This document shows, one piece after another, positions 1-42,799 of a stretch of 64,000 bases of DNA (position 1 is the first letter of the stretch; the number at the start of each line of letters is the position of its first letter). Made by a program: the position numbers and the translations under genes. The DNA lies in IMG/VR virus record IMGVR_UViG_3300018421_000015, positions 1 to 64,000 of that record; one strand, given 5' to 3'. The stretch comes from a virus. The notes beneath the pieces were generated by a model that saw only the letters and a list, made by a program, of their open reading frames with translations, was not told where the DNA came from and searched no databases.

Positions 1-218
1 ACATTGTTTTGTGGGGGGGACCCGGCGAAGCCGGGGGGGACCCAAAGGTAAAGATTTGAATGACAAAGGAGTAATTTCGAACACACGTTCTATGCGTGTG
101 TAAAAAAAATTACTATAGACCTTTAGTCATGAAAATCTACCCTTCGGCGTGCAACGCCCGAGCACTTATGATATACTCTACTACGTAGACGAGAAACCTA
201 CCAAAGGAGTACATACAG

Positions 219-2757: not shown

Positions 2758-3147
2758 ATGGCTAATCTTGACTTATTCAAAGACTGTGTATTTGTACAGT
2801 TTTCCCTCAAAGAAAACGGAACTCCCAATATCCCTGAAAATGGAATCAAGGAATTCGGTTTATTTCACAACTCCAAGTACACTGGAGAAAGCTTTATTGG
2901 CGTCAAAGGCGCCAGTAAATACGGTATCCGCATGCTAAAAGGATGCACCCATTGGGGCATCGTTGACGCATCAGATCCCGAAAACCCTGTGCTAATTCAT
3001 GTAGACACATATCCTAGCAAGAAACCTTCCGTAGCTAAGATTCGTAATCACTACATGATTGCACGCCAAAAAGGTCAGGTTCACATGAATCTCGTCCTTT
3101 CAGACCATAAGTCCCACTATGATATGAAGCGCAAGCACGAAAGCTGA
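2758..3147 (+). CDS. hypothetical protein
   Basis: 129 aa ORF with SD GGAG. Confidence 0.65.
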   Translation: MANLDLFKDCVFVQFSLKENGTPNIPENGIKEFGLFHNSKYTGESFIGVKGASKYGIRMLKGCTHWGIVDASDPENPVLIHVDTYPSKKPSVAKIRNHYMIARQKGQVHMNLVLSDHKSHYDMKRKHES

Positions 3148-3153
3148 TATAAC

Positions 3154-3552
3154 ATGGAAATCACTTACACTAACCCCAAGTCCAGTGCTACTCTTACCGT
3201 TACAGGTACCGCTGAGGAGCTTGCACCATTGGTGCTCCAGCTCGTCAACGACTTGCCTGTAATCCCTTCAATTACTACTTCTTCCACAAAGAAGACTTCA
3301 TCCAAGAAGACCCATTCTTCTTCTAGCTATTACAAGGATATGCGCAAGCAGATCATCGCTGATTTTGCTAACGGTCTCGACCGTGATGCTCTTGCGGACA
3401 AGTATCCTGTTAGCCGAACCAGCATTAACAAGTGGATTCGTGAAGCTAACCTTAGCACATACAAGGCCAAGAACAACAGCCGTAAGACTGCTGTTCGCAA
3501 ACCCTCTAACAACGATCTCCGTCAACGTATTGAGTCTATCTCAATTCGCTGA
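3154..3552 (+). CDS. HTH DNA-binding protein
   Basis: YYKDMRKQIIADFANGLDRDALADKYPVSRTSINKWI is a helix-turn-helix pattern. Confidence 0.65.
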   Translation: MEITYTNPKSSATLTVTGTAEELAPLVLQLVNDLPVIPSITTSSTKKTSSKKTHSSSSYYKDMRKQIIADFANGLDRDALADKYPVSRTSINKWIREANLSTYKAKNNSRKTAVRKPSNNDLRQRIESISIR

Positions 3553-3557
3553 TGGAA

Positions 3558-3647
3558 GATGTCTGTCCCCTTGAGAAGTAAAAACTTCTAGGTACTCCTT
3601 CACCTATCTCTGTCCCCCCCTTTAACTAGAGACAAGGGGCAGACATC
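3558..3647 (+). ncRNA. multi-branched structured intergenic RNA
   Basis: closing stem GATGTCTGTCCCCTTG/CAAGGGGCAGACATC with three internal hairpins. Confidence 0.45.
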
Positions 3648-3669
3648 ACAATCTTAAGAAAGACAGACT

Positions 3670-3906
3670 ATGAACACAATGACTGATATGCAAATCGAAT
3701 CAGAAATATACTCTTATTTCTCCTCGATTGCCAACACAGCCAATGCTATCAATGAACTGTCTTTGCATCTCAATTTTAAAGATCAAGATAAAGAAATTTT
3801 AGAGTTCGTAGATCAGTTCGAAGATCTGATTGTTAAACATCGAGACTCAATTAACTCTGTTCTTGATCTTTTTGTCGCTTACAAGCAATCAAAAAGACAC
3901 TCGTAA
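3670..3906 (+). CDS. hypothetical protein
   Basis: 78 aa ORF, co-oriented. Confidence 0.55.
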   Translation: MNTMTDMQIESEIYSYFSSIANTANAINELSLHLNFKDQDKEILEFVDQFEDLIVKHRDSINSVLDLFVAYKQSKRHS

Positions 3907-4067
3907 AATTGTTAAAGACCTGAATTTATACACCTTTCAGAGTCTCTATACATATATATATTATTTTTTGTAATCTAAACATTTACAAAATACACTAAAC
4001 CACTAAAAACATGTATCTACATACCTAATATTTAGATACCTTTTTATATGTTTAGGAGCAAAAAATC

Positions 4068-4394
4068 ATGTCAAAACAAGACCAAATCAATCAATTCATC
4101 GATAACAACGTAGGTAATGAATACCGCACTGCAGACCTTGCAGAGCATGTTGGATGTTCACTTCCAACTATTCTTTCATTCATCAAAAACAATGCTCACA
4201 GGTTTGAAAAGACTGGCCATGGCAAGTACTTCATCAAAGCTGAAGCTAAAACAATGACTGTATCAGAGTCATCTATCAGTGACTCTGAGCATGAAATTGA
4301 CACTGTTGTTCATGAAGAAATGACTACTGTTAGCGATGTAGTTGCACTACCAGTATACCAATCTTCGACTCCACGTCCAACGTTTGACTGGTAA
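4068..4394 (+). CDS. winged HTH protein
   Basis: YRTADLAEHVGCSLPTILSFI..FEKTGHGKY; SD AGGAG. Confidence 0.6.
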   Translation: MSKQDQINQFIDNNVGNEYRTADLAEHVGCSLPTILSFIKNNAHRFEKTGHGKYFIKAEAKTMTVSESSISDSEHEIDTVVHEEMTTVSDVVALPVYQSSTPRPTFDW

Positions 4395-5968: not shown

Positions 5969-8482
5969 ATGCAAAGAATCTACAAACCAGAACTGCGTCT
6001 CCAAGCCACCGATGATGGCCCTCTTCGCGGTGGTGACGGATACCAATTCGGTTTCTATGACTCCGGTGTCATGCGTCAGATTCTCGATAACTATGGTGGA
6101 GAGTACAAGATTTGGACTCTCCCAATCCCTGTTAACAACTACGAATACAGCAAAGCTGTCAAATATGTCAGCAATCCCAAAGTTCAATACGCTCTTGTCG
6201 ATAAAGATAAGATCGTATTCTGTGTGATCGAAAACTCTCCAGGATGGATGTCTGCCCTGAATGAACTCGGTTACGAGGTCTTTTCAGGCGATAAGACCAA
6301 CAAGCGTCTTAAGTCTCATCATCGTCCTACGCTGCTCAACGCAGAGTTTGGCCCCGATGAACTTAAGCTTATGCTTGTTGCTCATGATGAGTTTAGTCGT
6401 TACATCTTCCTTGGACCTAACCCAAATGCACCCGAAGAATACTGTAACCCTGGTGTTGCAGAACGTCTTCTTGACGGTGGCTTTGTGATCTCCCGGCGCA
6501 TTGTTCAACGCGCAGTAGAGAACCTTCCTATGTACCACCCTACTTCATCTATTGATGCAGCAGAGTATTATTATGACCCTCGTATCCGTTCGCGTATTGT
6601 AAACAATCTCTTGAATGCCCATGTTCTTAATGCTCGCATTGAGTTCGAAATGGGCTTTTTGAAGGGTAACTGTATTGTCTCTGACAATCTCCCTGAAGGT
6701 GTCGATATCTTGACTAGCGATGCCAATATCAAGCAGGAGATTAAATACAACAACGGATTTCGTTTCCTTGCAGAGCCACAAGGCCCTAAGGAAAAGGTCA
6801 TTACTGACGACCAGACTGTTATCAACTTTCCCAAGCTATTCCGCAAGAGCGACATGGATATGTGGCTCACCGAGGAATACAAGAAGCAGTATGAAAAAGC
6901 TATCAATGGTGAACTTCTCACCAACTGGCAGTATATTTATCAGCGTAACTGGCGTGATAACGAGAGCCTCGATGACAACGAAGCTCGAGCACGCACACAG
7001 TATGTAGGTTATCGCTGGACTGCAGCAGGGTTTAACATTACTCAATCACCATGGCTTATGGAAACAGTGTCCATCTCCCATGCCAAGCCTCTTGAATATC
7101 GGATTCCTATCCCATGTTCTGTCTACGAACAAGTGATTCCTGAATCATTTATTCGTATGGCAGGATATGACTTTCAAGTAGAGCCAGGTCAGATTCGACG
7201 TCACTCCGAAGTTGGAGTTCATGTCGTTAATGACCTCGATTGGCTAGAGATGTACGAGTCTCATGGTGGTCACGACGAGGACGACTTCTTCAAGTTGTTC
7301 TATCGTGAATTTGAAAGTGGCCCTATTGAAGGTAAGAAAGTTGTAGCTGTTCGTTCACCAAACGGCTTTGGCGAATATTCAATCTTTGACTATGTTGAAG
7401 GTGAATGGTCGCCAACCTGGCTTAAGTCAGATGGAACCGAAGTTAAGTTCCCTAAAGTAAATGGACGTGGCTGGCCTAAGCGTCTCAGTGAAGCAACACT
7501 TTCATCTGAGGTGCACTACAAAGGTCTGCCATCCCTCACTCAGCCAAAAGAAAAGCGAGAAGGACCATATACTCAAGAAGATGTCTTGAGAGATATCCGT
7601 ATTGCTATGGCTGGTGGAAACGTTGGTAGTTTCGTTAATGCATGTATGATGCATTCTTCTGTCATTGGTAAGCATCGTCCACTACAACTCTGCTCGTTGG
7701 AGGATGCCATCGACAAGTGTATCAACCCTGATCACGAACTCGATGTTAAAGCCATTGACCAAGAAGCTCAGAACATGTTCCGCGAAGTTATCGAATATGG
7801 TAAGCCCATTGACCGTAACTTGTGGTACAACCGTGGTAGCCAGCGTTATCTCAAGCAAGGCGAAGAAATTGAATTGTATGATGGTAAAATCACACAACTC
7901 AATAATCTTTGCTACACCCACTTCAATAACTACTGTAATGATATTCGTATGTGGTCGCAAGAGAACGCTCAACCGCCAGAAATTATCCACGAACTCGGTC
8001 GTCGTTTCTACACTTGGGCTCTGCCCATCTTGAGGGACTTCCGTAAAGGTGTGTATAATACAAACTCTTCAGAAGTTACAGCTGCCTCTGGTGCCATTGA
8101 GCGCACCAACTGGGAACATCTTTACCAGCAGCTTGTAAATAAGATTGAGTCTTTCGAACGTATTGAGGACATGTATGACTTCGTCATTGCCTTGTACTCA
8201 GCTACGATTCTCACACCTACCACTCAGGGTAAGATTTCGGATCAAGTTGTAATGAACCGCTTTGTCTTTCCTTATTTGGAGCATGCTCTTCAGTTTTATG
8301 GTATTGCTGCCCGTGCAGTATACAACCAGGAAAAGAAGAAGTTTAACCAAACCTATTCTTGTAGCTGGCAGTGGACCAACGCTGACGGCGAACTGGTTGA
8401 ATACAACGATCCTGTTGAGTTCCAAATGGCCCATTCGAACGATTCACCAATCGATTTCAGAATGCCCGCTCCAACCTCTTGA
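5969..8482 (+). CDS. single-subunit two-barrel (YonO/eukaryotic RdRP-like) RNA polymerase, divergent
   Basis: motifs LDGGFVIS, NAR....FLKG, RIPIP, GGHDEDD, VRSP, NVGSFVNA and DAID match the DG.G.IS, R..G.KG, DxDGD, RxP, G.i.N and AVD motifs of this family. Confidence 0.65.
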   Translation: MQRIYKPELRLQATDDGPLRGGDGYQFGFYDSGVMRQILDNYGGEYKIWTLPIPVNNYEYSKAVKYVSNPKVQYALVDKDKIVFCVIENSPGWMSALNELGYEVFSGDKTNKRLKSHHRPTLLNAEFGPDELKLMLVAHDEFSRYIFLGPNPNAPEEYCNPGVAERLLDGGFVISRRIVQRAVENLPMYHPTSSIDAAEYYYDPRIRSRIVNNLLNAHVLNARIEFEMGFLKGNCIVSDNLPEGVDILTSDANIKQEIKYNNGFRFLAEPQGPKEKVITDDQTVINFPKLFRKSDMDMWLTEEYKKQYEKAINGELLTNWQYIYQRNWRDNESLDDNEARARTQYVGYRWTAAGFNITQSPWLMETVSISHAKPLEYRIPIPCSVYEQVIPESFIRMAGYDFQVEPGQIRRHSEVGVHVVNDLDWLEMYESHGGHDEDDFFKLFYREFESGPIEGKKVVAVRSPNGFGEYSIFDYVEGEWSPTWLKSDGTEVKFPKVNGRGWPKRLSEATLSSEVHYKGLPSLTQPKEKREGPYTQEDVLRDIRIAMAGGNVGSFVNACMMHSSVIGKHRPLQLCSLEDAIDKCINPDHELDVKAIDQEAQNMFREVIEYGKPIDRNLWYNRGSQRYLKQGEEIELYDGKITQLNNLCYTHFNNYCNDIRMWSQENAQPPEIIHELGRRFYTWALPILRDFRKGVYNTNSSEVTAASGAIERTNWEHLYQQLVNKIESFERIEDMYDFVIALYSATILTPTTQGKISDQVVMNRFVFPYLEHALQFYGIAARAVYNQEKKKFNQTYSCSWQWTNADGELVEYNDPVEFQMAHSNDSPIDFRMPAPTS

Positions 8483-8551: not shown

Positions 8552-8800
8552 ATGATCACGCATATTGTTGTCAACCGGAACCATCAAGTAGCTTCCGGTA
8601 AAACAAGAAAATTATTAAACAAACATGGATCCATATTCGAATTACTTAAATACGGATATGAACATTCAGGCCAACGCCAAGAAGAAATACTTATTAAAAG
8701 TATAACTACAGGCTGGTCTGGATGGCTCTCGGTATCGGAGATAACATATGAAGAATACAATGGTCCTCTTAATCGAGAATCATTTTCATCAAATTTATAA
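8552..8800 (+). CDS. hypothetical protein
   Basis: 82 aa ORF, co-oriented. Confidence 0.5.
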   Translation: MITHIVVNRNHQVASGKTRKLLNKHGSIFELLKYGYEHSGQRQEEILIKSITTGWSGWLSVSEITYEEYNGPLNRESFSSNL

Positions 8801-9248
8801 ACGTGTAAGCGGATACGCTTACCACCAAGGTCATCCCTCACCCGAAGATGCAGCAATGGATGCAATATCTCAAGCATTGCGCCATTCCACTAAGTTTGAA
8901 GGTGACCTTGAAAACCTAGTCAGTTACATTATCGGCATTACGCGCTATGATATTATAGATCATCGTCGCAGCATGACTATTAAACCTACTGCTAACGTAT
9001 CAGTTTATGATCTTCAAGATTCTGATGCACCCACTTATTGTGATGAGTATTTTAAGTATCAATATCTTTATAATATAAAGAAAATGATAAAAGCACTCGA
9101 TCAAGCAGAATCAGATGCCATCATTGCTAAATATCTTTATGACATGACAGATGATGAAGCAGCCAGGTTTACCAAGAGAAGCTCTAAGTATCTACGCAGA
9201 GCCAGATCTACTGCATATAAAAAATTGCGTCGTCTTGTGGCGCATTAA
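8748..9248 (+). CDS. ECF-type sigma-70 factor
   Basis: region 2 (PEDAAMDA...SYIIGITRYDIIDHRR) and region 4 HTH (MTDDEAA...RARSTAYKKLR). Confidence 0.75.
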   Translation: MKNTMVLLIENHFHQIYKRVSGYAYHQGHPSPEDAAMDAISQALRHSTKFEGDLENLVSYIIGITRYDIIDHRRSMTIKPTANVSVYDLQDSDAPTYCDEYFKYQYLYNIKKMIKALDQAESDAIIAKYLYDMTDDEAARFTKRSSKYLRRARSTAYKKLRRLVAH

Positions 9249-9349: not shown

Positions 9350-9967
9350 ATGAGAGAAGTAACCCTTAACATCACCGGTCAAGGTGTCATGCTCGTTCAT
9401 AACGAGCGTCTTGCTAACACCATGGATCCTATTGCCAAGGATATGGTAACCATCACCTCGAAGCGCAAGAAGACTGATGAAGACCGAGACGAGCTTGCTC
9501 GCCACGAGTTCTTCGGAGGTCTCTACACCTTCGGTGAAAACCTTGTCCGATCAGCTGATGTCCCTTCTTCTTGGGAGATTTACAACAAGACCGGTATCCC
9601 TTTGTGGAACGTCTTTGTTTCCCTCAAGAACGGAGCTAAGCTTAACCGACTCGGTGCAACCGTTGACCGAGCCGTTCTTCCTTTTGGACCAGATGTCCTT
9701 GAGTTGAAGCACGACGGACCCAACGCTCCACTTGAGATGTGGGAGCAAGGTTTCTATGACCAGCGTTCCGTCAAAGTTTCAACCGCTAAGGTCACTCGTA
9801 CTCGTCCCAAGTACGTCAACTGGTCCACTACTGCGTCATTCCTCGTTGACACCGAACTGTTGAACATGGATGACTTCAACATGATTGCAGTCAACGCAGG
9901 ACGCACATCAGGTCTTGGCACCTACCGTCCTCGCTTCGGACGATTCGAAGTTGAGGTCTGTGCATGA
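9350..9967 (+). CDS. solo Cas7/RAMP-superfamily protein (Vipr-like guide-binding protein)
   Basis: N-terminal strand VTLNITG..MLVH, middle IP.WNV...LKNGA, R.RP, C-terminal G-loop AG..SGLGTYRPRFGRFEV; no cas1/2/3/5/6/8 nearby. Confidence 0.7.
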   Translation: MREVTLNITGQGVMLVHNERLANTMDPIAKDMVTITSKRKKTDEDRDELARHEFFGGLYTFGENLVRSADVPSSWEIYNKTGIPLWNVFVSLKNGAKLNRLGATVDRAVLPFGPDVLELKHDGPNAPLEMWEQGFYDQRSVKVSTAKVTRTRPKYVNWSTTASFLVDTELLNMDDFNMIAVNAGRTSGLGTYRPRFGRFEVEVCA

Positions 9968-10470
9968 CCTACAGTCGACAAGATACTAGTCGACCTTCAA
10001 CGATTCGTGACTACGTCGCCGGTTATCTTAACGAAGCCGGTGACGTAGTCACCTACGAAGAGTTGGCAGCCATGATTGATGTCACCTATCCTACTGGTGA
10101 TGATCATCTTGATCATGAAGTTGTTAAATCCATCAGCAAATCTGTTGCACAAGCCAACAAGTATCTATCAGACGATGGAAGCTGGAAGCATCTTGTTGTT
10201 ATTCCTAACGTTGGTTATCGTGTAGCTACACCATCTGATCTTCGCAACGAAGCTTTAGGTCGTTCTAAACACATCCTTAAAGAGCAGCGTAGAGTTATCA
10301 CAGCAACAGAAAAGGTAACTATTCACCCTGATGCAACTGCTAACCAGCGCACTCAAGCAAACAACAATCTTACACTTCAACACAGTGTTCAAATGATGCT
10401 AAACAAAGCACGGCGTAAAACTCGTCGTGATTGGATAGCACCAGAAGAGCCAATCATTATTGAAGATTGA
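9964..10470 (+). CDS. winged-helix accessory protein coupled to the RAMP gene
   Basis: ATGA overlap with the RAMP gene; GDVVTYEELAA..; LVVIPNVGYRV wing as in OmpR-type wHTH; helical C-terminus. Confidence 0.6.
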   Translation: MTYSRQDTSRPSTIRDYVAGYLNEAGDVVTYEELAAMIDVTYPTGDDHLDHEVVKSISKSVAQANKYLSDDGSWKHLVVIPNVGYRVATPSDLRNEALGRSKHILKEQRRVITATEKVTIHPDATANQRTQANNNLTLQHSVQMMLNKARRKTRRDWIAPEEPIIIED

Positions 10471-10874
10471 TCTTTATGGTCGAGCACGGTACTGTGCGGT
10501 GCCGTTATGTCACGCTCGGTAGTGCAACGTCTGGTTCGGTAGCATATTGCAAGGAGCCTTCGGGCTAAATAAAAAGATCGCTTAAATTCTTTACTGTATG
10601 GCCATGCCCGGTCACGTGCTGTGCGGTGGCGTTCGGTCTCGTAATGTTATGTCGGGTGTGGTAATGCTCGGAGCCTTAGGGCTAAATACTAAGATCGCTT
10701 AAATTCTTCTGTGCTCGGTTTTGCACTGCTATGCGGTATTAGGTTTGGACACGAATTGCGTTGTGATGCTTGGAGCCTTCGGGCTACATAAAAAGATCGC
10801 TTAAATTCTTTGAGGCGTTGCTTGACGATGCTAGGTCTTGTTATGTCGTGCAATGCAAGGAGCCTTAGGGCTAA
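10471..10874 (+). repeat. guide-RNA-like array: 39-nt repeats separating 5-nt-periodic (NGY-NN)n spacers
   Basis: repeat GGAGCCTT(C/A)GGGCTAAATAAAAAGATCGCTTAAATTCTT at 10553-10591, 10670-10708, 10772-10810, partial at 10859-10874; spacers 78, 78, 63, 48 nt. Confidence 0.9.
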
Positions 10875-10914
10875 GCAACATTATTTTTTTTAAATATAGA
10901 ACAAACAAAAACAT

Positions 10915-11214
10915 ATGACCTCTATCACTCTTATCCCAAATGATACATATAATCCTACTTATTCTTCTTATTCTAGTATGTCAACCAGTCGCAAATTCTT
11001 TTACAAGGCTGGTAAACTGGCTGGAAAAACGAAAAGAAACCTACAAAAACCAGAAGTAAAGATCTCTGCAATATTATCTTATTGGAGTCTTGAAACAGTA
11101 GTATGCGCAGTAGCAATAATGTCTATCACTAGTAAGACCATCATTGCTGCTACCTTGCTGCTATACATTTACGGTACGTACGCACTATTTAGTGCCATAT
11201 CAGCATTGGTATAA
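10915..11214 (+). CDS. small membrane protein
   Basis: two C-terminal hydrophobic helices. Confidence 0.55.
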   Translation: MTSITLIPNDTYNPTYSSYSSMSTSRKFFYKAGKLAGKTKRNLQKPEVKISAILSYWSLETVVCAVAIMSITSKTIIAATLLLYIYGTYALFSAISALV

Positions 11215-11216
11215 TT

Positions 11217-11840
11217 ATGCAAACTATTGAATCAGTACAAGAAGTTGTTACTCTTATTAAAGAAGAACTTTCCGCAGTAAAAACTATTGTAGAAACTAAT
11301 CTTTCTGAAATTAATAGCACTAAAATTGCTCCTCTTATTGTCTTTTTCACTTCTCCTGAAACAAGATATATTGTAGCTTCTTCTTCAGCTTCTGGAGATT
11401 TTGCTGACGTTGTCTGCAGAATATCCGAAGTAATGAATATTTATCCATTGATTGACGCACATGCTGCCGTCATTTCAATGAATACAAATGTAGAGATTGA
11501 CGATGATGTCGTCTCTGCTATTAACACATTTGTTATTAGCTATGAGCAAGCATGGTCGATCACTACACCATATGAAGTCTATGGCAATGAAGTCGTCTGG
11601 TGGAATGATAAAGTCAATATTGAACTTATTGACGATCTTGAACTAGATGACGAAAGTCGCCAGATGGTTTCTATGTTTTATATGTATGTACATGTTAACG
11701 ATGTACATTTTACTATGTCCGAACTGTTATCATATCTAAGTACAATGGATACTGCTATCAACTTCATTGAAGATGATGCTCCTCCGTTCTTTGATATGTC
11801 TAACAATGAGCTAATACAAAACATAAATAATGTCAACTAA
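11217..11840 (+). CDS. hypothetical protein
   Basis: 207 aa acidic ORF. Confidence 0.65.
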   Translation: MQTIESVQEVVTLIKEELSAVKTIVETNLSEINSTKIAPLIVFFTSPETRYIVASSSASGDFADVVCRISEVMNIYPLIDAHAAVISMNTNVEIDDDVVSAINTFVISYEQAWSITTPYEVYGNEVVWWNDKVNIELIDDLELDDESRQMVSMFYMYVHVNDVHFTMSELLSYLSTMDTAINFIEDDAPPFFDMSNNELIQNINNVN

Positions 11841-11999
11841 AAAAAACTTTACATACTTTTCTTTCAATTCTATCACCTCAGAAAAGAAAGATAAGAAGTA
11901 TAATATTAAATCAGAAATTGTAGAAGATGATGATTTTGACGAAAAGCTTGAAAAGCTTATGAGTCAAGAACTCGTATACGGAGATGTAAATTACTACTA

Positions 12000-13679
12000 A
12001 TGTCTGTTCAACTGCGTCCATACCAAACTGAAGCATTAGATGCTATTCGTGATTTTAACAACAATGGTGTATCACGACAGTTAGTAGTTCTCCCAACGGG
12101 CGCAGGTAAGACAGTTATTTTTACTCATCTCCCTCAGCATCTAGATAATGCATTGCCTATGCTTATTCTTGCTCATAGAGAAGAACTTCTCACGCAAGCA
12201 AAAGATAAGCTAGAATGGTCTAATCCACAACTAACAGTGGAAATAGAACAGGCGGAAAATTATGCAAGCACAAATGCTGACGTTGTTGTCGCTTCCGTTC
12301 CTACTCTTGGCAGGGATGGCAGTGAAAGAATCTCAAGGTTTCCAAAGAATCATTTTAGAACCATTGTTATCGATGAAGCCCATCACGCAGCTGCTCCTAC
12401 TTATCGTAGGATCCTCGATTATTTTGAAAATGATTTTACTCTTGGTGTAACCGCAACCCCACAAAGATCTGACAATACGCGCTTGACAGACGTATTCGAT
12501 GAGATAGTATACTATAAGACAATAGTTGATCTTATTGAAGAAGGTTGGCTATCAAGAATTGTTGGATACCGTATCCAAACGGATACAGATATTTCGGAGG
12601 TTAAGACACAACATGGAGACTACGTTGCTTCCCAGTTGGAAGATGCTATTAATACTCCTAAGCGCAATGCTACTATTGTTGCTAGCTATATGGAGATATG
12701 TGGTACTGCTAAAGCCATTGCCTTTGCGTCGGGAGTCGAACACGCTCACGACCTGGCCTCATCCTTTAGGCAAGCGTCGATAGCGGCAGAAGTTATTATT
12801 GGTTCAACTCCTTCTGATAAACGTCACCAAATACTTTCCCGTTTTGCTTCCGGTGAAACAAGAGTATTGGTTAACGTTGGCGTTCTTACTGAAGGCTTTG
12901 ATGAACCATCTGTAGAAGCTATTATACTTGCAAGACCTACACGATCAACGTTACTATATACACAGATCGTTGGTCGTGGAACCCGTCTATTTGAAGGGAA
13001 GGCTCATTGCAAAGTATTGGATTTTGCAGACACCACCAAAGGCAAGAAGCCTCTTGGCCTTCCGTCATTACTGGGTTTACCCCCGGACTTCGACCTTGGA
13101 GGACAAGATTTAGTAGACGTCGCAAACAAGTATAAAGAACTTGAAGAGTTCTGTCCCGGTGAAGCTGTACGTGTACTAAATCCTGAAGATATCGAACTCG
13201 CCTATAAGCGTATCGATCTCTTTATGCCTCCGCCTCCAAACGAAGTTGTACAACAATATTCTCGTTTCGTTTGGGCAGAAGTTGCTGAAAATGATTTCCA
13301 TTTAGCAGTAGATTCAAACAATTCATTTAGAATATTTGTAGACACTCTTGGTAGATGGACTGTTACTCAAACAACTAAGGTTGATACAAAAACTGAAGTT
13401 AAACTTTTGGGACATCCTGAAGATATGCGTGATGCATTTGTCAGATCTGATAAGTGGATTGTTAGACGATACAATACTAATCTGATAGAATCAGATGCAC
13501 CATGGAGAGCAGATGCTCCCACCGATGCTCAAAAGAAAACTCTTAAACGTATTGGTGTACCAATCACAGCAGACATGACTAAAGGTATTGCTTCTCAGAT
13601 TATTGGTAAATATTATGAGAACAATCCTAAACCTCAATGGTTACAGAACAAGATTAATTATAATAAAGGAAGATGGTAA
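12000..13679 (+). CDS. SF2 DEAH helicase (SSL2/Irc3-like)
   Basis: LRPYQ, PTGAGKT, DEAHH, TATP, LTEGFD, QIVGRGTR motifs. Confidence 0.95.
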   Translation: MSVQLRPYQTEALDAIRDFNNNGVSRQLVVLPTGAGKTVIFTHLPQHLDNALPMLILAHREELLTQAKDKLEWSNPQLTVEIEQAENYASTNADVVVASVPTLGRDGSERISRFPKNHFRTIVIDEAHHAAAPTYRRILDYFENDFTLGVTATPQRSDNTRLTDVFDEIVYYKTIVDLIEEGWLSRIVGYRIQTDTDISEVKTQHGDYVASQLEDAINTPKRNATIVASYMEICGTAKAIAFASGVEHAHDLASSFRQASIAAEVIIGSTPSDKRHQILSRFASGETRVLVNVGVLTEGFDEPSVEAIILARPTRSTLLYTQIVGRGTRLFEGKAHCKVLDFADTTKGKKPLGLPSLLGLPPDFDLGGQDLVDVANKYKELEEFCPGEAVRVLNPEDIELAYKRIDLFMPPPPNEVVQQYSRFVWAEVAENDFHLAVDSNNSFRIFVDTLGRWTVTQTTKVDTKTEVKLLGHPEDMRDAFVRSDKWIVRRYNTNLIESDAPWRADAPTDAQKKTLKRIGVPITADMTKGIASQIIGKYYENNPKPQWLQNKINYNKGRW

Positions 13680-16580: not shown

Positions 16581-16663
16581 GCCCGAGTGGCGGAATGGCA
16601 GACGCCGAGGACTTAAAATCCTCTGATCGAAAGATCGTGCGGGTTCGAGTCCCGCCTCGGGTA
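16581..16663 (+). tRNA. tRNA-Leu(UAA)
   Basis: long variable arm; anticodon arm GAGGA-CTTAAAA-TCCTC. Confidence 0.95.
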
Positions 16664-16665
16664 CT

Positions 16666-16999
16666 TCTCAGATAAGTAAATAAAACAATTATCAATCTGG
16701 TTGGTGGGTAATGGGCTTATCTGAGATTCATTTTATTGCAGTAAGGCAAACTTATCCTAGTTCGCGTGAACACTTACTGCAATAAATCCTTAGTCAATAA
16801 ATTATATTCTACGAAGATCATTATAGCTCTACCAAACCTATTGATGGTCGTCTTTCTTTTACGTAGAGAACATTTATTGGCTAAGGTAATTTCTGTGACC
16901 GTTATGTAGGGATCGTGATGTGTTATTTACATTTAATACATCGTGTTTAACGTGTCACATAGGCGGTAGCTGTTTAATCTGTTCGGCGGCTACCGCCTA
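16666..16999 (+). ncRNA. five back-to-back stem-loop RNAs between tRNA-Leu and tRNA-Lys
   Basis: stems at 16666-16726, 16732-16786, 16788-16886, 16894-16959, 16960-16999, several with G-U pairs. Confidence 0.6.
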
Positions 17000-17003
17000 A
17001 CTC

Positions 17004-17076
17004 CCGCCTTTAGCTCAGTTGGTAGAGCAGTGGACTTTTAATCCATTGGTCCTGGGTTCGAGCCCCAGAGGGCGGA
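17004..17076 (+). tRNA. tRNA-Lys(UUU)
   Basis: cloverleaf; anticodon arm GTGGA-CTTTTAA-TCCAT. Confidence 0.95.
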
Positions 17077-17105
17077 CTATCATTAACCTTAAAAGGAGAA
17101 ACACA

Positions 17106-17336
17106 ATGACAAAAACTAACACTACTTCAAATTACTCTTTAACAAGATTTGACACTTCTTCTGACACCATGACTTTCACCTACAATAATCCAGAACTTGG
17201 TTCTACAGTTGTTCTGGAAATTGAAACTGGACCAGGCGCAGGTGCCGTTGTTCTTCAGAAAGGTGAAAGACTTAGTGGAATGATGATTGATGATGTCGTT
17301 GATTTCATCTTTCACAACGGTGACATTTTAAACTAA
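17106..17336 (+). CDS. hypothetical protein
   Basis: ATG after SD AAGGAGA; the track's start lies inside the tRNA. Confidence 0.6.
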   Translation: MTKTNTTSNYSLTRFDTSSDTMTFTYNNPELGSTVVLEIETGPGAGAVVLQKGERLSGMMIDDVVDFIFHNGDILN

Positions 17337-17342
17337 TTACTT

Positions 17343-17606
17343 ATGATTTTAAATACAACATACATTGAACCAGGTACATTAGTTGGAGATACTCAAAGAA
17401 AAGTTACTCTAGCCTCCAAGATTAGAGAAGCTGGAGATGGCACTTATCCTGTTTGGATTGCTATCTGCACTGACCCTAATGGGTATCATCAATATGTTGT
17501 TTGGGATATTGCTCTTCGCCCAGAAGGTCCTTACGCTTCTAATGGAGATTACTTCCATAATATCAAAGATGCTATGGAGTGTTACATTCAACGAGGCGGA
17601 TCTTAA
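17343..17606 (+). CDS. hypothetical protein
   Basis: 87 aa tandem ORF. Confidence 0.55.
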   Translation: MILNTTYIEPGTLVGDTQRKVTLASKIREAGDGTYPVWIAICTDPNGYHQYVVWDIALRPEGPYASNGDYFHNIKDAMECYIQRGGS

Positions 17607-17974
17607 AAAAATTTTTTCTCTTAGTTTGTTCCAATAATAGTATACTGTGATATACTGTTGGAGCACAAATACGGAGGCCAGATGCAAACAATACACTTAA
17701 CACTCGATATGATTATCGAAGTCCCTGAGGACGAGAAAGCAAAAGACATACTTGTTATTCAAGAACTCTTGAGTAAATTGTATGTCGGAGAAGATCACTA
17801 TGAAGGTGATGTTTTCTCAGTTAAGGATATTACCCTTAGCACTTTTGTAAAGGAAAAGTAATGGCATTAGCTAAATTTAGAAAGATAGTCGGAGGTGCCA
17901 AAAACAAGGCAACCAAAGACCTTTCAACTAGTCCCAAGAAAAGTGATAAGGATAAGAAGACTAAGTAGTCTTCA

Positions 17975-18047
17975 GCCGGATTAGCTCAGTTGGTAGAGCA
18001 CTTCACTTGTAATGAAGATGTCGCGGGTTCGAATCCTGCATCCGGCT
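17975..18047 (+). tRNA. tRNA-Thr(UGU)
   Basis: cloverleaf; anticodon arm CTTCA-CTTGTAA-TGAAG. Confidence 0.95.
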
Positions 18048-18048
18048 C

Positions 18049-18178
18049 TGTATGGTAGCCAGTACAGCAAACTTGATAAATAAACTCATAGCTATTTATC
18101 GAGTTCATACTCTAGCTGGACGGATCCAAATCACATACCATATGCTGGTGCACAATAGTGTTGTGTGACTACCATACA
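18049..18178 (+). ncRNA. structured RNA between tRNA-Thr and tRNA-Ile
   Basis: closing stem TGTATGGTAG/CTACCATACA; inner 13-bp hairpin AACTTGATAAATA/TATTTATCGAGTT; branched TCACATA/TGTGTGA domain. Confidence 0.55.
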
Positions 18179-18182
18179 ACAG

Positions 18183-18261
18183 GGGAGAAGGTGCGGCGCT
18201 GGTTGCTGCAGCGTGTCTTATAAACACGTGGTCATGGGTTCAATTCCCATTTCTCCTACCA
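18183..18261 (+). tRNA. atypical tRNA-Ile(UAU)
   Basis: acceptor GGGAGAA/TTCTCCT + ACCA; anticodon arm CGTGT-CTTATAA-ACACG; T arm ATGGG-TTCAATT-CCCAT; G at position 8. Confidence 0.8.
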
Positions 18262-41974: not shown

Positions 41975-42799
41975 CCACCTATTTGCTATCCATTCCAACA
42001 TTCTAGAGAGCCAATTTCCTTTTCCATCTTTTTTTTCAAGAAGTTCATCTTTATCTCGCTGCTCTTTTTTGTATCTAGATTTTTGATTAATTGGAATAAA
42101 CGTAGATTTAAAACCACGCTGAGAAAGAAGATCGTATATACTACCGTCACCCCAAATGTAATTAATCCCTTTTTGCCTAGGAATAGGTACCACATGCTGC
42201 ATAATTTCACCTATTTCTATAGTAAATTCTTTATCAGTCAATATGTTCAAAACTATATTTGCATGATGGTAATAATCGGTATTTACTAATGCTGGCAAAA
42301 GTGTATAGTTTGGATTAGGTTCCCAAAGTGGAGGAAGGAAAATGGAAGACCACCCTGGTGCCGTTTTAAATAGCCAGGGATTTATTATTTTAATATAATT
42401 TGCTCTCTCAAGTTTTCTTACCCTAGTCACTGGGCATTCTCCACTTTGATGAAAACCAAAACCTTCAACATGAAATTCGTGATTACCAGCAATGTCAAAT
42501 CTACTTTCCCAAAATGAACCATCTGGAGATGGTCTGAAATGCAGTCTTGCCCACATCGGTATATTGAAACCAAGAGATATATAATCAGCTGTCCCAGAAC
42601 ATCTTCTCAATGCACCATCTCCAGAATCTAAATCTTTCCACCAATCTGGCCAATTTCTCCAGTTATCAATTGGCATTACTTCAGGGTCATAGAGCATTTG
42701 TGTATTCGGAGTAATTAAAACCTCACCTGGTTTTACTTTTGGTATATTATAAAAAGAATTAGCTGTCTCTATTTTTAGTTCTCTCAATGGCTTCTCCAT
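41966..42799 (-). CDS. DUF6065/dUTPase-fold-like protein
   Basis: C.G..DY...GF.IP, NPW...TAPGWS.F, VNTD.Y. Confidence 0.55.
   Translation of the reverse strand: MEKPLRELKIETANSFYNIPKVKPGEVLITPNTQMLYDPEVMPIDNWRNWPDWWKDLDSGDGALRRCSGTADYISLGFNIPMWARLHFRPSPDGSFWESRFDIAGNHEFHVEGFGFHQSGECPVTRVRKLERANYIKIINPWLFKTAPGWSSIFLPPLWEPNPNYTLLPALVNTDYYHHANIVLNILTDKEFTIEIGEIMQHVVPIPRQKGINYIWGDGSIYDLLSQRGFKSTFIPINQKSRYKKEQRDKDELLEKKDGKGNWLSRMLEWIANRWSR

Follow-up and report, generated by a model that had tools for sequence, protein, structure and literature searches.

The open reading frame (ORF) at positions 9964–10470 of the window, by which we mean the whole 64,000-nucleotide stretch analysed here (positions 1 to 64,000 of IMG/VR virus record IMGVR_UViG_3300018421_000015), is with a probability of roughly 85% the vap gene of a Viral Interference Programmable Repeat (VIPR) locus, which comprises vipr, vap and four vrRNA genes (10478–10893) and is carried by a salt-marsh or estuarine phage. 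The phage is large, since the record, at 86,299 bases, is estimated to be just 41% complete, and DNA runs from salt marshes and estuaries contain the locus. It adds a divergent member to VIPR, a system described since 2026, and does not represent a new kind of system. A reading made from the sequence alone had placed a winged-helix accessory gene between a RAMP gene and a guide array, sharing an ATGA with the former and followed directly by the first unit of the latter. All three parts are indeed present side by side: vap starts within the ATGA that closes the vipr ORF (9350–9967 and 9964–10470), its TGA stop codon occupies 10468–10470, and the first clear pentamer of the array, GGTCG, lies at 10478, 8 nt past the stop.

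VIPR is covered by three 2026 bioRxiv preprints (10.64898/2026.04.26.720920, 10.64898/2026.04.26.720927 and 10.64898/2026.10.15.759431), from which we take the Vipr–vrRNA mechanism and the requirement for vap1; homology, gene architecture and co-occurrence come from our own analysis. The system consists of Vipr, an accessory Vap and vrRNAs of GGY/NN repeats, and serves phages as a programmable, nuclease-free silencer of double-stranded DNA against rivals (10.64898/2026.04.26.720920). Vipr is an early-branching RAMP of ~20 kDa, and each vrRNA combines 9–16 YNNGG repeats with an invariant tail at its 3′ end; pairing of the NN dinucleotides to double-stranded DNA passes over one base after each two and needs no protospacer-adjacent motif (10.64898/2026.04.26.720920). 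Binding represses transcription, as seen in GFP repression and cro/cI silencing, and the natural targets are satellites and rival prophages, with no self-targeting (10.64898/2026.04.26.720920). Seven VIPR types have been distinguished, of which type II (Escherichia phage SUSP1 and a Pseudomonas fulva prophage) carries vap1, a predicted winged-helix-like DNA-binding protein whose co-expression raises protection (10.64898/2026.04.26.720920). Cryo-electron microscopy, in the available text of 10.64898/2026.04.26.720927, resolved filaments with one Vipr protomer per repeat that form an R-loop triplex, and SUSP1 lacking vipr or vap1 suffered a ~10^4 plaquing loss on a satellite lysogen in the available text of 10.64898/2026.10.15.759431. 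VIPR has been proposed to be older than CRISPR.

Vipr and its RAMP fold

The vipr product returned no match in Pfam, NCBIfam or PADLOC and matched phrog_4652 with E = 3.4e-38. Its AlphaFold model, built from an alignment of 44 homologues (pLDDT 96.1, pTM 0.89), gave 47 Foldseek matches in the PDB at E <= 0.001, the top ones being Csm3/Cas7 proteins of type III and type VII systems (E from 3.9e-5), at a TM-score of only 0.37–0.48 and a sequence identity of 9–14%. A glycine-rich C-terminal loop, AGxxxGxGxYRPxFGRFEV, was kept across the 44 homologues. These predicted-structure matches bear out the earlier assignment of the upstream gene as a RAMP, and on the strength of the model we regard the 205-residue protein as a true one. 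Alignment with SUSP1 agp039 (195 aa) covered residues 1–203 at 33% identity (E = 1e-34); in the SUSP1 record (NC_028808), the pair of 195-aa and 146-aa genes stands beside a DNA ligase gene, as it does in wV8.

Cas7 backbone proteins of class 1 CRISPR-Cas (Csm3, Cmr4 and type VII Cas7) share with Vipr the RRM-based RAMP fold and the glycine-rich loop and, according to the available text of 10.64898/2026.04.26.720927, a protein filament that contacts its guide RNA at regular intervals. They differ in using a 6-nt register where VIPR uses 5 nt and reads its guide discontinuously, and no Cas5, Cas6, Cas10, Cas11 or adaptation genes occur near vipr in the window.

Fold and family of Vap

The AlphaFold model of Vap contains, in order, helix 14–21, strand 28–30, helices 31–37 and 47–62, and a three-stranded wing at 66–87, followed by two long antiparallel helices (90–116 and 126–155) that make up the C-terminal half. 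Its best Foldseek rows (E 0.04–0.26) were mostly MarR- and OmpR-type winged-helix regulators. A profile of the marine Vap family matched the DNA-binding domain of AdeR among PDB sequences with E = 3.2e-4, and a wider-family profile of 30 members did so with E = 9.5e-5; OmpR/PhoB-type domains made up 21 of the 29 rows listed for the latter up to E 10, all except AdeR at E > 0.02. The OmpR/PhoB rows aligned the recognition helix and the V-R-G-x-G-Y-R wing with Vap residues ~25–90. These profile matches are the strongest evidence on the type of domain; the Pfam model for it (Trans_reg_C) did not report it in Vap. The winged-helix pattern noted earlier in the sequence is thus moderately upheld by the element order of the model, the weak Foldseek rows and the AdeR profile matches.

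The likeness of Vap to the OmpR/PhoB DNA-binding domains (Trans_reg_C; AdeR, BaeR, PhoB) lies in that recognition helix and wing. Vap is not an OmpR/PhoB response regulator: the N-terminal receiver domain is absent (no Response_reg match in Pfam), and the protein instead begins with the winged helix and ends with the helical hairpin. A wide VIA-align search with the Vap model gave only generic helical-hairpin matches, to the C-terminal half (Z <= 7.8). Neither a nuclease motif in the 168 residues nor a nuclease family in Pfam, NCBIfam and PADLOC scans was found, in agreement with the sequence-only reading. Vap is described here as a non-enzyme that joins a predicted OmpR/PhoB-type winged-helix DNA-binding domain to a helical hairpin.

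Profile comparisons indicate that Vap is a distant homologue of Vap1. It matched phrog_5926 (E = 2.2e-6), a family common to the SUSP1-like and Pseudomonas genes, and like Vap1 it is a predicted winged-helix DNA-binding protein encoded directly after vipr. The Vap-family profile aligned with SUSP1 agp038 (146 aa) over 120 columns (hhalign, 93% probability, E = 3.4e-7), and the wV8 orthologue was recovered with 92.9% probability. The subfamily is rare: a search of 1.84 billion proteins gave 13 representatives at E <= 0.001, and only seven clusters are at least 66% identical; two pattern scans of IMG/VR for Vap relatives found none. Vap also diverges faster than its neighbour: its identity was below that of Vipr in 96.9% of 700 sampled pairs drawn from 66 non-identical loci, one example being a mean identity of 21% where the Vipr mean was 36%.

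The vrRNA array

Four array units, each containing GGAGCCTT[C/A]GGGCTA, were located at 10553, 10670, 10772 and 10859; these are 4 matches against 0.02 expected from shuffles, with no further copy in the 86,299-base record. The guide array proposed from the sequence is thus real; it is not CRISPR-like, its variable parts being coded in pentamers. Among the 51 pentamers of the four tracts, position 2 was G in 48 and position 3 a pyrimidine in 49, and positions 4 and 5 showed near-uniform base use; the variable parts are G+T-rich. The fraction of identical bases was 0.35, 0.37 and 0.34 at lags of 5, 10 and 15 nt, compared with ~0.24 at other lags, and this signal was absent from two coding controls. 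A sliding periodicity scan along the 86-kb record put 10421–10900 alone above a score of 0.15; the runner-up region reached 0.11. The spacings between units (117, 102 and 87) shrink in steps of 15, that is, three pentamers.

Each of the four units ends in a structured 3′ tail. Each of 12 tails taken from the window and the related loci L002 and L003 retains all four pairs of the tail hairpin; in 4 of the 12 (the L003 lineage) one pair reads C-G in place of G-C, a compensatory change. The sequence AAGATCGCTTAAATTCTT recurs between units. Ahead of unit 1, the 3′ end of vap contains a degenerate copy, GAAGATTGATC; behind the last unit, a T-run takes the place of AAGATCGCTTAAATTCTT, in the window as in L002. 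Because a copy precedes unit 1 and none follows the last unit, AAGATCGCTTAAATTCTT is assigned to the start of the next unit and not to the tail. For the vrRNA that follows it, the inter-unit element ATAAAAAGATCGCTTAAATTCTT may provide a leader, a promoter or a signal for processing. The array end at 10875–10893 is likely the end of the transcript, and the L002 array shows the same ending, with the T-run in place of the inter-unit element, after its second unit.

Neither the array nor five related loci matched a relevant Rfam family. A reading of the array as small ORFs was considered, the spacings of 117, 102 and 87 being multiples of 3 and one frame giving peptides that end in GAFGLNKKIA; it was rejected because the frames are interrupted, the conservation sits in a hairpin with compensatory change, and the 5-nt periodicity explains the spacings. 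Origin iterons, partition sites and a TRAP-like RNA-binding ring were dropped after the Foldseek RAMP result and the VIPR literature.

In the 85%-identical relative L002, a protein-coding gene (1107–1673) lies in mid-array, with two vrRNA units before it and at least two after, and a strong hairpin follows the vap stop codon.

Table 1. Features of the VIPR locus and its upstream neighbour, in window coordinates (residue numbers for protein domains).
Feature	Position	Strand	Description
vap (gene under study)	9964..10470	+	168 aa, ATG start; Vap1-like accessory protein
Vap winged helix	residues ~14–90		OmpR/PhoB-type (predicted)
Vap helical hairpin	residues ~90–155		antiparallel (predicted)
vipr	9350..9967	+	205 aa, minimal Cas7-like RAMP; putative filament-forming guide-RNA binder (by homology)
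vrRNA1 guide tract	10478..10552	+	15 pentamers, N-G-Y-N-N register
vrRNA2 guide tract	10595..10669	+	15 pentamers
vrRNA3 guide tract	10712..10771	+	12 pentamers, two off-consensus
vrRNA4 guide tract	10814..10858	+	9 pentamers
vrRNA1 3′ tail	10553..10568	+	4-bp hairpin AGCC-UUCG-GGCU inside GGAGCCTTCGGGCTAA
Further copies of the 16-nt tail element	10670..10685, 10772..10787, 10859..10874
Inter-unit element ATAAAAAGATCGCTTAAATTCTT	10569..10591	+	also 10686..10708 and 10788..10810; absent after last unit
Array end	10875..10893	+	after final tail hairpin: GCAACATTA, then run of 8 T
ECF-like sigma-70 family gene	8748..9248	+	context only; not a conserved part of the system

Recurrence of the gene pair and tracts in other phages

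A tblastn search with Vipr matched 131 phage records. In four of four diverse annotated phages (Pseudomonas LESphi2, Escherichia wV8, Gordonia MakoManhole and Pseudomonas Medea1), a phrog_5926 gene of 146–179 aa directly follows the phrog_4652 gene, and G-rich tracts with a 5-nt period adjoin the pair. The tracts end differently by lineage: in wV8, long hairpins accompany GGTNN runs; in the Pseudomonas phages, the runs are of GGCNN and close with GGGCTG; and in the Gordonia phage, a tRNA-like minihelix stands after each tract. In the Gordonia MakoManhole locus (1646–1691, 2979–3024 and 3097–3142), the minihelix is a 6-bp acceptor-like stem enclosing the T-arm GGTGGGGTTCGACTCCCCACC, which suggests that host tRNA-processing enzymes release these vrRNAs.

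We then take a survey sample of 80 of the 106 RAMP relatives found by a pattern scan of IMG/VR, calling a tract periodic at a score of at least 0.15 within 700 bp of the genes. A periodic tract lay near vipr in all 80 loci, and only five such windows, in three loci, occurred elsewhere. In 70 of the 80, a search with an iterated profile detected a Vap1-family gene encoded on the strand of vipr; of these genes 61 abut or overlap vipr, eight follow after a gap of 109–600 nt and one lies upstream. Without iteration, a profile from the marine Vap family alone placed the gene beside vipr in 58 of 89 sources. Homologues occurring independently of RAMP/array loci were not seen in the IMG/VR survey. 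Together with fold and homology, this co-occurrence upholds what the sequence-only reading proposed: an accessory gene that encodes a winged-helix protein, not a nuclease, and belongs with a RAMP gene and an array of guide RNAs.

No Vap1-family gene was detected in the remaining ten loci (L071, L073–L079, L084 and L087). Five of them (L074–L076, L079 and L084; ~3551–4130 in each) carry right after vipr a ~500-nt A-rich tract with a 5-nt period (A 0.36–0.38, G 0.22–0.27), and may represent another VIPR type with a different repeat consensus. In locus L009, the periodic tract and vipr are directly preceded by a reverse-transcriptase gene (846–2471; RVT_1, E = 4e-24).

Comparison with characterized VIPR loci

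The closest published counterpart is the type II locus of SUSP1 (vipr agp039, vap1 agp038 and four vrRNAs). The two loci share the vipr–vap order with coupled starts, homologous Vipr proteins, Vap proteins related at the profile level, and vrRNAs of 9–15 pentamers with a conserved G-Y, two free bases and a conserved 3′ structure; both are phage-borne and nuclease-free, and the window guides, like those of SUSP1, gave no sign of self-targeting. The SUSP1 locus has one vrRNA upstream and three downstream, whereas all four lie downstream in the window, and its Vap1 has 146 residues compared with 168 in the rare subfamily found here. The Pseudomonas loci (the P. fulva prophage clade of the preprints; LESphi2 and Medea1 in our comparison) have the same phrog_4652/phrog_5926 pair and adjoining GGCNN/GGTNN tracts of 10–13 units. 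They differ in that the LESphi2 tracts lie upstream, the tracts end in GGGCTG and then a longer hairpin, position 1 is G in 9/10 to 13/13 pentamers per tract, and the phages are temperate. With a small single-RRM RAMP homologous to Vipr, tracts of 9–15 pentamers of relaxed motif beside vipr, a structured tail on every unit and an ATGA-coupled vap gene, the window locus has the composition of a VIPR system.

Several observations weigh against this assignment. The pentamer motif departs from the published GGY, because position 1 is G in only 18 of the 51 pentamers and T in 24. The tail, 16 nt long and built around a 4-bp UUCG/UUAG hairpin, contrasts with the ~40-nt pseudoknot tail of SUSP1 (a pseudoknot was not searched for here). 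The Vap model is of middling confidence (mean pLDDT 66.7) and gave no Foldseek match at E <= 0.001; the link from Vap to SUSP1 Vap1 is remote (pairwise BLASTP E = 0.023), and tblastn with Vap against 50,697 phage records gave no match. The locus is best called type-II-like, a putative label drawn from its Vap1-like gene. Four RNA-library runs hold contigs matching parts of vipr, vap and the array (depth 2–18), which is no proof of transcription because such libraries can contain DNA; neither the stretches that lack cover nor the contigs that bridge parts of the locus say anything about transcripts, and the single transcript proposed from the sequence is putative.

The guides themselves are a further point of this kind. 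Exact patterns with 1-nt skips (9–12 dinucleotides) from guides 1–4 matched nothing in IMG/VR, and longer exact patterns of guides 1 and 2 matched nothing in one-genome-per-species contigs; since only perfect matches counted and no scan covered a whole guide, targets may well exist. With no DNA target found for the four guides, their function as guides here rests on homology. The best self-matches of the four guides within the 86-kb record were at the level of shuffled controls, in agreement with the published absence of self-targeting (10.64898/2026.04.26.720920). A mismatch-tolerant scan of thirteen guides (window and L002–L004) against the 86-kb record and those loci gave none better than shuffled, and the guides of the relatives had no match in the record.

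Role of Vap

By homology with the SUSP1 and Pseudomonas fulva systems, Vipr protomers would polymerise along each vrRNA, one per pentamer, and sequester the conserved G-Y bases. The two variable bases of each pentamer would then be free to read double-stranded DNA, passing over every third base, and the transcription of a rival mobile element would be silenced without cleavage. Vap would act as a DNA-binding helper beside the Vipr–vrRNA filament, at the target or at the locus, strengthening or enabling silencing in real infection; it would not be a structural subunit of the core ribonucleoprotein (RNP), and the published data rule it out as the repressor proper. The sequence-only reading had derived a programmable repressor, rather than a nuclease, from this gene. 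For the system this stands, given the published SUSP1 silencing of GFP and cro/cI; the repressor character does not come from this protein, because SUSP1 Vipr and one vrRNA suffice to bind DNA and repress from plasmids without Vap (10.64898/2026.04.26.720920). The roles suggested from the sequence, DNA loading, capping or transcriptional effector, are all candidates, as the published data on Vap go no further than enhanced protection by vap1 and the ~10^4 plaquing cost of its deletion in SUSP1. We infer the following ranking of roles: DNA-side helper, then regulator of its own vrRNA units, then tail-binding cap. Vipr–Vap complex prediction scored 0.00 in two runs, which is no answer and carries no weight either way.

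It is possible, although less probable than a helper role, that Vap is the locus's own OmpR/PhoB-type transcription factor, binding the element before each vrRNA (AAGATCGCTTAAATTCTT) and switching the expression of the vrRNAs, of vipr or of both. The V.G.GYR wing motif and the profile matches would fit such a factor, as would an element that is conserved before units 2–4, degenerate (GAAGATTGATC) before unit 1 and missing after the last. The faster evolution of Vap relative to Vipr is also in keeping with it, the inter-unit and tail sequences likewise differing between lineages, and so is the pattern in SUSP1, where repression from a plasmid promoter needs no Vap and the native phage, in the available preprint text, needs vap1. 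However, vap1 on a second plasmid still enhanced protection by plasmid-expressed VIPR (10.64898/2026.04.26.720920), a result that one would hardly look for from a pure locus regulator, unless the native control region was kept in the cloned fragment. The direct-repeat reading of the inter-unit element, moreover, is our own, and the site is putative.

A capping or assembly subunit of the RNP, which would attach to the 3′ tail of the vrRNA or to the end of the filament and set register or length, had been among the roles suggested from the sequence and appears rather unlikely. Translational coupling of vipr and vap through the ATGA overlap, the abutting or overlapping arrangement in 61 of 80 loci and the strong variation of both Vap and tail sequences between lineages speak for it. 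Against it, the SUSP1 RNP from vrRNA1 and vipr alone bound DNA and repressed (10.64898/2026.04.26.720920), and although vap1 was present during expression of the P. fulva RNP, Vipr protomers alone make up the structures reported in the available text of 10.64898/2026.04.26.720927. Tracts also occur without a detectable Vap1-family gene in 10 of 80 loci, and the Vap domain resembles DNA-binding, not RNA-binding, modules.

A degenerate or miniature CRISPR-Cas system with ordinary contiguous spacers, in which the winged-helix protein would be a Csa3-like regulator, would account for a RAMP fold nearest Csm3/Cas7 and for the repeat-plus-variable-part layout, but it is highly improbable and contradicted by the 5-nt periodicity of the variable parts, which are compositionally biased and unlike sampled protospacers, as well as by the lack of any other cas gene among the neighbours scanned or of any PADLOC match, and by the same tract type flanking the gene pair in unrelated phages without any CRISPR repeat.

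Upstream genes and genomic context

The sequence-only reading had set the locus just downstream of phage RNA polymerase and sigma genes. The sigma part holds, at scores below curated cut-offs: the gene at 8748–9248 matched Pfam Sigma70_r2 (E = 2e-4) and TIGR02937 (E = 1e-9). The polymerase part could not be confirmed. The 837-aa ORF at 5969–8482 lacks a D.D.D motif and matched nothing in Pfam, PHROG or the PDB sequences, and the candidate was set aside; its single lead, an Atlas score of 0.86, points to viral clusters of which 19–57% carry PF05183 (RdRP). An 854-aa homologue of this ORF lies upstream of the VIPR genes in L003 (632–3196).

Nor is the adjacency conserved across loci. In a scan of 72 of 123 listed upstream ORFs, chosen to leave out near-duplicates and far-upstream ORFs, a sigma-r4/GerE-like domain appeared in two. 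The rest are varied, with ligases, antirepressors and tail proteins among them as well as an integrase and a reverse transcriptase. The module behaves as a portable cassette. Small sigma-r4/GerE-like genes do stand upstream of VIPR tracts in a few temperate-phage loci (L005, LESphi2, 2147–2530; L025, 1881–2273; L031, 1704–2150), in the manner of the sigma-like gene of the window, although the arrangement is not general.

The G+C content is 49–53% across vipr and the start of vap (9350–10100), compared with 31–37% in the genes just downstream (10900–12000), a contrast consistent with a cassette acquired from elsewhere. The window further contains six tRNA genes (2469–2717 and 16581–18261) and, on the minus strand at 42000–63100, an auxiliary-gene cluster with tryptophan-halogenase-like, carbamoyltransferase, glycosyltransferase and aminotransferase genes and four 2OG-Fe(II) oxygenase-like genes.

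Implications

VIPR offers a recently described means by which RNA reads DNA, and its accessory protein Vap1 is required in real infections. The window adds a divergent VIPR from a large environmental phage, with a shorter tail, a relaxed repeat motif and a rare Vap subfamily. More tentatively than for the helper or regulator roles, we suggest that the marine clade could form a distinct VIPR subtype, marked by a relaxed K-G-Y pentamer, a minimal UUCG-hairpin tail and this Vap subfamily. Its fast-evolving, OmpR/PhoB-like Vap, binding tandem sites, would recognise lineage-specific inter-unit DNA or the tail and act as a specificity or licensing factor for which vrRNAs Vipr uses. If true, this would matter in the reported contests in which satellites and rival phages supply decoy "solo" vrRNAs. 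The survey constrains the role of Vap in three ways: it accompanies vipr in 70 of 80 viral loci, has an OmpR/PhoB-type N-terminal domain and diverges faster than Vipr. These points are useful for testing Vap and leave the overall picture of the system unchanged.

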